Below are positions 55,197 through 56,720 of a stretch of DNA of 64,000 nt, piece by piece. The translations under genes and the position numbers were made by a program. The notes below the pieces were generated by a model that ran no database searches, was not told the DNA's origin, and worked only from the letters and a program-made list of their open reading frames with translations. Every line of letters begins with the position of its first letter. Within the stretch, counting starts at the first letter, position 1. The stretch lies in the NCBI GenBank assembly GCA_964370475.1, contig CAYJJI010000003.1, positions 14,389 through 78,388 on the forward strand. The letters run 5' to 3'. This DNA is from an uncultured Muribaculaceae bacterium (GTDB lineage: Bacteria; Bacillota_I; Bacilli_A; RF39; UBA660).

Positions 55197-56720
55197 CTAA
55201 ATAGACTTTTTAATTATTTGTACATATTCAATACATTCTTTCATTACACCTTTACCACATTCTTTATTTAAGAATGAAATAAATGGATCTAATTCATCAC
55301 GTATGAATGCTATATTTAATTGTTCAAATTTTCTTAATATTTTTCTTGCTAGGAAGTAGTCAATTGCTTCCATTTCATCTCCACCACATGCAACATATAC
55401 TGGTGCAAATTGGTTAAGTTGCTTCATAATTCTGTTACCGAATGCTACACGGAAGTGTTTGATAACGTAATCATCTATTTTTGTTAATTTATTTAGTGCT
55501 TCTTCTGATATTTTTACATTAGTCATTGCTTCTTTAAATAGTGCTTCTAAGTAAGATGAGTTAATACTCATTGCTTCTTGTTCACGACACTCAAATGGTG
55601 ATATCTTTTTATTAATATCGATAGGCATTGCTCTATCGTATACCTTATCTGTTACCATATATGTTGAATCATCATTATTGATTGTTCCTATATACCATAA
55701 GTTTCCAGGTAATTGAATTTTTCCGTTTTTGATGTACTTTGGATCATTTTGCCATCCACTTGTTACTAATTCAACTATCCATTCATCTCTTGATGGAATT
55801 TCTAGAATTGATAACATTTCTGCAAAGTAGTACTCTACTCTGGCGATGTTCATTTCATCTAATATTATTGTATGAACGTTATCATCGTAACTAGCTGCGT
55901 ACACTTCACCAAGGGCATCTGTTTCTGTAAATTTCTTTGTAAATTCGTTGAAATATCCAAAGAATTCTGTTTTATCTTTCCATGAAGGTTGTACTGATGC
56001 TACAACTGAGTCATTAGCAACGAATTTCCCCCATGCGTATGCAAGGGAAGTTTTCCCTGTTCCTGAGATACCTTGTAATATTATTAGTTTACTTATTGCT
56101 AATCCAGCTACGAATACTCTTAATAAACTTGGTTCGTAATATAATTTCAATTTTGAAGCTGAGAAACTTCTTAAGTTATCAATTAATTCTTCTAGTGTGA
56201 AATTATTATTATAATTAGGTACTGTTTTACCTTCAAATGATTGGTCTATCATTTCTAATTTAGGGAATCTGTGAGCATTTTCTATTACTTCTTCATCTTC
56301 CTCAGTAGCTTTACTAGTTCCATCAGGATTTTCTCCATCTTCTTCTGGATTCAATCCTAATTGTGAAACTTTCATAGCCATTAATTCGCTATTTTCTTTC
56401 ATTAATCTTCTAACTTGATTGTTCAATTTATCTAATTCTTCTAGTAATGATTCATTACTTAATTTTGTTGTTTTGTTTCTTAAGAATCTTCTTACATATA
56501 AGAATATTAAGAAAGCTATTAGTCCTACAAATAGCACAAGGAAACCCACTGCTACAGCAGTGAATAACCATTCTGGTCCATTGAAGTCTTTTGAATAGCC
56601 TTCAATTAGTTTACTATATTTACTAAAGTTAAATATTTCTACTATTCCTTTTCCTATTGTTGTAATTCCTGTTACAAATATATCTAGAAATTCAAATATA
56701 AATCTTGTAAAGGTTTCCAT
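55197..56720 (-). CDS. Membrane-anchored McrB-like AAA+ (AAA_5) GTPase
   Basis: 507 aa. TM WLFTAVAVGFLVLFVGLIAFLIFLYV followed by RRFLRNK, then a coiled coil. Walker A GISGTGKTS. Walker B and fingerprint IILDEMNIARVEYYFAEMLSILE (compare McrB DEINRA…FGEL). NLWYIGTINNDDST (compare McrB IIGTMNTAD). Confidence 0.65.
   Translation of the reverse strand: METFTRFIFEFLDIFVTGITTIGKGIVEIFNFSKYSKLIEGYSKDFNGPEWLFTAVAVGFLVLFVGLIAFLIFLYVRRFLRNKTTKLSNESLLEELDKLNNQVRRLMKENSELMAMKVSQLGLNPEEDGENPDGTSKATEEDEEVIENAHRFPKLEMIDQSFEGKTVPNYNNNFTLEELIDNLRSFSASKLKLYYEPSLLRVFVAGLAISKLIILQGISGTGKTSLAYAWGKFVANDSVVASVQPSWKDKTEFFGYFNEFTKKFTETDALGEVYAASYDDNVHTIILDEMNIARVEYYFAEMLSILEIPSRDEWIVELVTSGWQNDPKYIKNGKIQLPGNLWYIGTINNDDSTYMVTDKVYDRAMPIDINKKISPFECREQEAMSINSSYLEALFKEAMTNVKISEEALNKLTKIDDYVIKHFRVAFGNRIMKQLNQFAPVYVACGGDEMEAIDYFLARKILRKFEQLNIAFIRDELDPFISFLNKECGKGVMKECIEYVQIIKKSI

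Follow-up and report, generated by a model that had tools for sequence, protein, structure and literature searches.

Bell et al. (eLife 2024, PMC11090510) gave the name CoCoPALM, in two sentences, to a large clade of NxD GTPases with N-terminal transmembrane (TM) and FtsB-homologous coiled-coil helices, a coiled-coil McrC homologue and an association with signal peptidases, and deferred its analysis to a forthcoming paper. Among the papers searched, no later one uses the name in this sense. Long soluble coiled coils and an association with HEPN or other nucleases characterise the CoCoNuT GTPases of the same work (PMC11090510). The TasA operon of Bacillus subtilis (tapA-sipW-tasA) and the BsaA operon of Clostridium perfringens (sipW-bsaABC) encode no cytoplasmic nucleoside triphosphatase (NTPase), and their fibres form by extracellular donor-strand exchange (PMC9674648, PMC11580942). 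Here I describe a locus in which a GTPase of the CoCoPALM kind lies among genes resembling those of these SipW operons. It was found in a stretch of 64,000 nucleotides (positions 14,389 to 78,388 of contig CAYJJI010000003.1, assembly GCA_964370475.1; hereafter the window) from an uncultured bacterium labelled Muribaculaceae, with the GTDB lineage Bacillota_I, Bacilli_A, RF39, UBA660. The central gene, D507, encodes a GTPase of 507 amino acid residues.

Judging from its proteins, the window system appears to match the CoCoPALM class. An McrB-like NxD GTPase with an N-terminal TM segment and helix is present, signal-peptidase genes lie near it, and a helical McrC homologue is matched in part. 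The system is probably a member of this named, experimentally unstudied class. The idea of the original prediction, that an McrB motor has been co-opted for a non-restriction role in secretion or assembly, is supported, but it was anticipated and is not new. What is new here is the fusion of a domain, called X below, to a SipW-type signal peptidase, together with a pseudo-peptidase, a paralogous set of secreted proteins and strict synteny. The two published sentences differ in mentioning neither X nor the X-SipW fusion (PMC11090510), and they describe no degenerate peptidase, no set of six to seven secreted paralogues and no synteny in metagenome-assembled genomes (MAGs) of gut Bacilli. By analogy with solved McrBC complexes and from the gene fusion, I lean towards the reading that a membrane-tethered McrB-like ring, which a DUF2357 protein would plug and activate and which X would join to SipW, provides GTP-dependent control or force for the processing or polymerisation of SipW-anchored surface-fibre subunits. 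The features of D507 are as follows.

55197..56720, minus strand: D507, McrB-like GTPase of the NxD branch, 507 residues; from N- to C-terminus, a conserved hydrophobic N-terminus (1-45), a TM segment (56-74), a helix (88-121), an acidic linker (122-150) and the AAA+ domain (151-507).
56499..56555, minus strand: TM helix of D507, residues 56-74, VAVGFLVLFVGLIAFLIFL, with RRFLRNK next to it on the cytoplasmic side.
56358..56459, minus strand: conserved juxtamembrane helix of D507, residues 88-121, a putative coiled coil.
56049..56072, minus strand: Walker A motif of D507, GISGTGKT, residues 217-224.
55848..55859, minus strand: Walker B motif of D507, DEMN, residues 288-291 (ILDEMN, 286-291).
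55668..55679, minus strand: NxD signature of D507, N348-N349-D350 followed by D351, at the sensor-1 position of McrB.

The motif positions were checked on the translation. D507 has at least 8000 homologues, as all of the 8000 candidates scored in a word-indexed search among 5.8 billion proteins were significant. The top 120 are 503-525 residues long and 61-100% identical to D507, with a query coverage of 97-100% (100% in 119 of the 120). When 1.84 billion cluster representatives were scanned exhaustively with HMMER, 8135 matched at E<=1e-3 and 722 at E<=1e-30. Since the homologues are numerous, nearly uniform in length and aligned over nearly the full query, the open reading frame (ORF) of D507 can be taken as a genuine conserved gene.

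At the sequence level, D507 is supported as a relative of McrB. When all PDB sequences were searched with D507 by phmmer, E. coli McrB was the sole match (E 2e-5), in an alignment that spans Walker A, Walker B, FAEML/FGEVM and INNDD/MNTAD. Two profiles of the D507 family, made from 50 close homologues and from 69 diverse representatives, also returned only McrB from the PDB (E 2e-5 and 7e-6, respectively), and the only AAA+ match of D507 in NCBIfam was McrB PRK11331. With the AlphaFold2 (AF2) model of D507, Foldseek ranked MCM subunits first and McrB sixteenth. The top matches were MoxR/RavA, McrB, dynein, the chelatase BchI and MCM, which form one shared branch of the AAA+ superfamily; the fold evidence, which comes from a predicted structure, does not discriminate among these groups. 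The highest structure-based identity was to McrB (21-22%). A structural placement of D507 in another AAA+ clade, which would speak against the original prediction, seems to be touched on by the MCM ranking but not established by it, as the top matches come from related AAA+ groups.

These searches also bear on the explanation that D507 is a MoxR/RavA-type chaperone-like ATPase acting on envelope proteins, and not an McrB relative. No MoxR, RavA, NorQ, MCM or dynein chain was among the PDB sequence and profile matches listed up to E=10, and the best structure-based identity, as mentioned, is to McrB. The partner of D507 is a McrC-like protein with a DUF2357 domain and not the VWA protein typical of MoxR systems; no VWA-domain protein was found among the cluster proteins scanned. 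The N-x-D-[D/E]-S signature fits the published NxD branch of McrB. Such a MoxR-type ATPase is very improbable here.

The original prediction had located McrB fingerprints in D507, and GISGTGKT, DEMN and NNDD are all at the places given there. One of these needs rewording: GTINNDD is of the NxD type and not the canonical NxxD. The DEINRA-type Walker B motif had been regarded as McrB-specific, which was not upheld, as MoxR ATPases also carry such motifs. In the 69 diverse representatives, G217, G220, G222, K223, D288 and N291 are invariant, as are N348, D350, R294, R363 and R430, and D351 varies. Over the 150 best representatives of the family the signature reads GT[A/I]-N-x-D-[D/E]-S. According to Bell et al. 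(PMC11090510), an NxD variant "usually followed by E or a second D" defines a major branch of McrB GTPases. Since N348 and D350 are invariant and position 351 is variable, as in this definition, D507 is assigned by its sequence to the NxD sub-branch of McrB GTPases.

This branch is common to D507, the CoCoNuT proteins (CnuB/CnuC) and the PADLOC candidate defence system PDC-M26. Residues 148-312 of D507 match PDC-M26A with E 3.9e-37, over part of a 724-position profile. The next-nearest representatives to the D507 family are CoCoNuT-like, TM-less relatives of 700-870 residues. CoCoNuT GTPases, unlike D507, also occur on plasmids; D507 is anchored by a TM segment with a short helix behind it, and neither HEPN nor another nuclease was found in the cluster proteins scanned. 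As a separate observation, a third architecture exists among the nearest GTPase relatives. In these proteins of 550-700 residues, the NxD GTPase domain is preceded by 4-5 predicted TM helices, which sets them apart from both the 1-2-TM form, to which D507 belongs, and the TM-less CoCoNuT-like form.

What replaces the DNA-binding domain of McrB in D507? By hydropathy, D507 has a single strong TM segment, with a Kyte-Doolittle value of 3.09, at residues 56-74, and RRFLRNK comes directly after it; the TM helix and cytoplasmic tail of the original prediction are borne out. The AF2 model, a monomer built from a 50-sequence alignment (mean predicted local distance difference test (pLDDT) 78, predicted template modelling score (pTM) 0.67), has helices at 2-43, a TM helix at 50-82, a helix at 90-120 and a confident AAA+ domain at 150-507. 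Residues 121-150 are disordered in this model and acidic, with a net charge of -10, as expected from the acidic linker described earlier. The coiled coil of about 60 residues proposed with it shrinks on inspection: the helix after the TM segment has only about 30-35 residues, and its heptad pattern is weak despite strong conservation (E95, L99, V103, L106, M114, M116, V118, S119 and L121 are invariant in 50 homologues). The TM segment and helix gave sub-significant matches to ATP synthase b-subunits (E about 0.04-0.07). No DNA-binding domain was found in residues 1-150 by Pfam searches with D507 and 50 homologues, by the AF2 model or by hydropathy.

A single TM segment with a short helix resembles FtsB/DivIC, and Bell et al. 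call the N-terminal fusion of their class FtsB-homologous (PMC11090510). It might be supposed that D507 is a factor of cell division or envelope growth, acting through an FtsB-like TM and coiled coil and unrelated to the neighbouring secreted proteins. The published homology is not reproduced by Pfam for the D507 homologues, as DivIC/FtsB is absent from the families listed for 50 of them. The cluster has no divisome gene, D507 keeps an invariant place relative to the SipW and secreted-protein genes, and SipW itself carries X as a fusion. I regard a role in division as highly unlikely.

The partner is encoded by the gene next to D507.

54040..55182, minus strand: E380, McrC-like partner, 380 residues, with DUF2357 at residues 54-152.

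The DUF2357 domain (PF09823), which is the N-terminal domain of McrC, was detected in E380 with 25.3 bits against a Pfam cut-off of 23.3, and in all of 44 homologues (best E 4e-12). Among the Pfam matches listed for E380 and these homologues (E up to 1), there is no nuclease family. In total, 775 homologues of E380 were found, of which the best 120 are uniformly 372-383 residues long. The AF2 model has a long beta-hairpin (153-178) between two long helices (115-147 and 183-211), with a pLDDT of 73-89 in this region. The C-terminal half (230-380) is all-helical in what is a low-confidence model, and is unlike the alpha/beta core of a PD-(D/E)xK nuclease. Sequence and profile searches of the PDB gave no meaningful match, a designed coiled coil being marginal (E 0.12). 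A distant plasmid relative of D507 is paired with a DUF2357 protein of 705 residues, compared with which E380 appears much trimmed. From these data E380 is considered a McrC-like (DUF2357) protein lacking the PD-(D/E)xK nuclease. The original prediction had noted a 380-residue partner with no McrC-type nuclease signature, and this stands; the search for a fold in the partner that it proposed led to DUF2357, and no clear McrC nuclease emerged.

Canonical McrBC of E. coli and T. gammatolerans (PDB 6HZ4, 6UT6, 6UT5) shares with the window system the AAA+ GTPase core, Walker A, the DExN motif, the sensor-1 Asn and the DUF2357 domain of McrC, and McrB is the sole PDB sequence match of D507. The differences are that D507 has a TM anchor in place of the N-terminal DNA-binding domain and NxD in place of NxxD, that E380 lacks the nuclease, and that the genes are chromosomal and form a syntenic part of a secretion cluster.

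On both sides of the D507-E380 pair lie genes of SipW-type peptidases.

59043..59618, minus strand: B191, two-TM protein with SipW-like topology and weak similarity to SipW.
56720..58930, minus strand: C736, SipW-type signal peptidase (residues 1-168) followed by a cytoplasmic acidic linker and X.
56723..57928, minus strand: X domain of C736, about residues 335-736.
53447..54043, minus strand: F198, second SipW-type signal peptidase, whose start codon overlaps the stop codon of E380 (ATGA).

The N-terminus of C736 and F198 match TIGR02228 (SipW-type) with 64 and 77 bits, respectively, against a cut-off of 51.85. Thus, the GTPase gene does lie between two SipW genes, as originally noted, with C736 upstream and F198 downstream. 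The catalytic motifs are TGSMEP, ITHRI and KGDAN in C736, and TGSMEP and ITHEV in F198; the C736 peptidase is apparently active. The Ser, His and GDAN motifs are missing from B191 and from each of the 63 homologues examined; B191 looks like a conserved pseudo-peptidase or a scaffold heading the cluster.

Residues 13-31 and 150-168 of C736 form TM helices, and its N-terminus is positively charged. From this topology, everything past residue 168, including X, is predicted to be cytoplasmic. The extension of 570 residues consists of a 226-residue linker with 70 Asp/Glu residues and then X (about 400 residues); this cytoplasmic extension of the upstream SipW was absent from the original prediction. 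The gene directly upstream of the GTPase gene was found in two forms, as a SipW-X fusion of 633-798 residues or, in distant loci, as a stand-alone X of 304-354 residues, which has no TM segment and no peptidase and aligns with about residues 335-736 of C736. Of 77 loci, 41 have the fusion immediately before the GTPase gene, and X was detected upstream of that gene in 66. X had no match in Pfam or the PDB by sequence and profile searches. A degenerate EAL/TIM-barrel, suggested by eye from 'LISYDEF' and 'GYRISCYID', was considered and rejected, as Pfam EAL matched only 1 of 31 members (E 0.035). Because no polar residue of X is invariant among its homologues, X seems to fit an adaptor better than an enzyme. 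The fusion of X to SipW argues that X, the GTPase and the McrC-like protein physically work with the peptidase.

The same fusion would also suit a system in which the ring and X regulate SipW or act in quality control, gating the peptidase or, as AAA+ extractases do, pulling signal anchors left after cleavage or substrates that have stalled out of the membrane. X extends the cytoplasmic tail of a SipW that is apparently active, the lack of invariant polar residues in X is as for an adaptor, and TM helices keep the ring at the membrane. No pore loops for threading a substrate and no partner protease were identified. In rings of the McrB type, McrC acts as a plug and substrates are not threaded (structures 6HZ4 and 6UT6), which counts against extraction of this kind. 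Sequence alone cannot tell such a regulator from a fibre-assembly module; I judge the regulator unlikely.

How strict is this arrangement? The stop codon of C736 overlaps the start codon of D507 (TAATG), the E380 stop and the F198 start overlap as given above, and the spacer between D507 and E380 is 14 nucleotides long with a Shine-Dalgarno sequence. The C736, D507, E380 and F198 genes are taken to be translationally coupled. In a scan of one genome per GTDB species, 576 relatives were confirmed among 600 pattern matches listed (at least 576 species). In the best 80 loci, the D507 relatives are 55-79% identical, and all of these loci come from MAGs of uncultured gut, rumen or sediment bacteria (labelled Bacilli, Tenericutes, Erysipelotrichaceae and so on). 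Synteny was assessed by tblastn with the window proteins in 82 related loci. A homologue of E380 adjoins the GTPase gene in 78 of 78 loci, and a SipW-type peptidase comes next after the partner in 76 of 76. The order continues downstream with homologues of G406, H202 (on the opposite strand), I240, J/K/L and M554, and upstream of the GTPase gene are the B191 and C736 families. The median identity across loci is 58% for D507, 43% for F198, 34% for E380 and 33% for C736; by this measure, D507 is the best-conserved gene of the cluster. The distribution and the neighbours, which the original prediction had proposed to check, thus amount to at least 576 species genomes and a near-invariant synteny with SipW and secreted-protein genes.

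The full-length D507 architecture was found in none of 72,556 plasmids and 50,697 phages, nor in IMG/VR contigs. The matches there are distant relatives of the GTPase domain, at most 38% identical and each covering less than 80% of the query; they occur on 282 plasmids and on a small number of phage or viral contigs. It was assessed on these grounds whether the cluster is a membrane-associated anti-phage system, either for abortive infection or derived from type IV restriction, in which the McrBC-like pair senses infection at the envelope and responds via the peptidases or another effector. The ancestry of the pair in McrBC restriction systems, the strong PADLOC match of D507 to PDC-M26A and the plasmid and viral relatives, one of them paired with the long DUF2357 protein, all point in this direction. 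Yet the PDC-M26A match spans only part of the profile, and E380 and C736, scanned together with D507, had no PADLOC match. No nuclease or other recognisable toxic effector was found. The full-length architecture was missing from the plasmids and phages searched, the neighbours are housekeeping genes, and the cluster recurs in 82 loci, with the GTPase in at least 576 species and as the slowest-evolving gene, which is the opposite of typical defence islands. Since the GTPase is syntenic in at least 576 species, absent in this form from the plasmids and phages, and the best-conserved gene, a defence role is unlikely; the specific anti-phage system outlined here I consider quite unlikely. Of the two alternatives in the original prediction, synteny thus favours secretion or assembly and disfavours the abortive-infection module.

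The fibre-assembly reading depends on what the cluster exports. The cluster spans positions 44652-59618 of the window (about 15 kb) and contains the two SipW-type peptidases, the degenerate third and six or seven secreted proteins with signal anchors of the SipW type. The genes downstream of F198 are as follows.

52209..53429, minus strand: G406, secreted or anchored protein with a SipW-type signal anchor (..VTYAWF..), paralogue of the H202 family.
51543..52151, plus strand (opposite to the others): H202, small secreted protein (..SHTYSRYV..), conserved in position.
50575..51297, minus strand: I240, membrane-anchored protein with a C-terminal motif common to the J/K/L family.
49157..50551, minus strand: J464, member of the J/K/L family, with the signal anchor ..STFAWF.. 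and the C-terminus ..VWLEGQDIDNYD..NFGFTKQQ.
47887..49131, minus strand: K414, member of the J/K/L family.
46635..47762, minus strand: L375, member of the J/K/L family.
44652..46316, minus strand: M554, cytoplasmic protein of 554 residues without TM segment, at the distal end of the cluster.

G406, H202, J464, K414 and L375 have a K/R-rich N-terminal segment, then one TM helix and then an [ST]-[YF]-A-[WK]-[FY] motif. We take this motif to resemble SipW-cognate signal peptides, such as that of TasA (..TWAAF..). By profile-profile comparison, the H and short-G families are paralogues (probability 96% over 165 columns), and the J/K/L family shares its N-terminal motif with G and its C-terminal motif with I240. 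The J/K/L family has 1873 database homologues, belongs to no Pfam family and is not annotated. Its signal anchor reads ..STYAWF.. and its C-terminal motif ..GITKVRVYxWxEGQDVDxEN.., and some of the homologues carry C-terminal Bact_surface_Ig-like domains. The profiles of the J/K/L and H families had no meaningful match in the PDB. M554 holds its distal position in 31 loci and had no family match. A TasA or camelysin identity of the window's secreted proteins was tried, and Pfam, NCBIfam and the PDB gave no assignment.

Three secreted-protein genes found in related loci (L001:3593-7315 and L003:2438-7257) have no counterpart in the window. The first encodes a protein of 756-1130 residues with OmpL47-type beta-barrel repeats, the second a protein of about 180 residues at the threshold of Peptidase_M73, and the third a protein of about 290 residues with a ..LAKYVS.. 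signal anchor. Because related loci carry these extra genes, the secreted repertoire appears to be variable across related loci, alongside a fixed cytoplasmic core. In L001, a protein of 184 residues matches Pfam Peptidase_M73 (camelysin/TasA) with 22.6 bits against a cut-off of 22.5.

With the tapA-sipW-tasA and sipW-bsaABC operons, the window shares an endoplasmic reticulum (ER)/archaeal-type SipW beside several secreted proteins with SipW signals, and a Peptidase_M73 protein is shared at a borderline score by the orthologous locus, not by the window. It differs from them in its two to three peptidase-like genes, GTPase, McrC-like protein and X, and in that its secreted proteins match no TasA model. 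Hints in favour of a fibre reading are the Ig-like domains of some J/K/L homologues, a sub-threshold match of L375 to TIGR04088 and the borderline Peptidase_M73 match in L001; for the secreted proteins in the window this reading is plausible, not proven.

On the reading that I prefer, in which the cluster assembles surface fibres, D507, E380 and X, encoded just upstream, would form an McrBC-derived GTPase module lacking both the DNA-binding domain and the nuclease and tethered to the inner face of the membrane. By analogy with the solved McrBC complexes, D507 may form a hexameric ring suspended under the membrane by six TM helices with their stalk helices, and the DUF2357 domain of E380 may plug this ring and stimulate GTP hydrolysis. 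X, as the gene fusion suggests, would join the ring to the SipW peptidase. GTP-driven movements, transmitted via the membrane anchors, could then control the extraction, SipW cleavage or polymerisation of fibre subunits, and the membrane-anchored subunits would assemble into a surface filament of the TasA/camelysin type.

Several points weigh against this reading. GTPase activity, hexamer formation and partner binding are carried over by analogy for all members of the class. The AF2 model of E380 is poor (pLDDT 62, pTM 0.44) and had no structural match (no PDB entry reached an E below 0.2 in Foldseek). The window's secreted proteins had no significant TasA/camelysin, Pfam, NCBIfam or PDB match; L375 was sub-threshold against TIGR04088 (SipW-dependent signal peptide; E 0.055), and the Peptidase_M73 match is right at the threshold and in the related locus, not in the window. 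The lack of DivIC/FtsB among the listed Pfam families of the 50 homologues also tells against it, since the literature claims FtsB homology. Assembly of the TasA fibres in B. subtilis involves SipW and TapA but no cytoplasmic NTPase (PMC9674648, PMC10151520), so that a motor is not an obvious requirement.

A stronger version can be put forward only tentatively. The GTPase ring, derived from a restriction enzyme, may be physically wired to an ER-type signal peptidase, because X is fused to SipW and the order X, GTPase, McrC-like protein and SipW is invariant. Such a GTP-powered, membrane-spanning machine would couple cleavage of the signal anchor to polymerisation of a surface filament made of several subunits. 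As a filament-assembly apparatus of Gram-positive bacteria it would differ in kind from sortase pili, type IV pili and TasA fibres, the last of which have no motor, and hundreds of uncultured Bacilli species from gut and rumen would carry it as core equipment.

The surroundings of the cluster are as follows. It is flanked by genes for a phosphoketolase, Fur and rubrerythrin on one side and for a DUF6512 protein and AddA/AddB on the other, which are housekeeping genes, and terminator-like hairpins lie at its edges. A promoter scan of the window found 93 candidates against 109 expected, which is not above chance, and was not used. A second cluster at 22.8-30.5 kb was considered and set aside, as its ORFs look ordinary by translation (NusA-like, CotJC/Mn-catalase-like, ABC transporter). 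At 26278-27235 of the window (minus strand), two adjacent ORFs resemble, by their translations, the spore-coat genes for CotJC (Mn-catalase family) and CotJB. Because of these ORFs, it would seem that the host is a spore-former or descends from one despite the 'Tenericutes-like' labels.

Since the class has already been named, the value of the present analysis lies in its anatomy and in testable predictions, not in discovery. The X-SipW fusion is a testable handle on how a cytoplasmic ring communicates with an extracellular peptidase. If the assembly reading is true, a defence-derived NTPase motor, McrBC, has been recruited to a task at the cell surface, and some SipW-dependent fibres, unlike those of TasA in B. 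subtilis, would need cytoplasmic energy. Among the uncultured Bacilli of gut and rumen, the system is widespread and strongly conserved.

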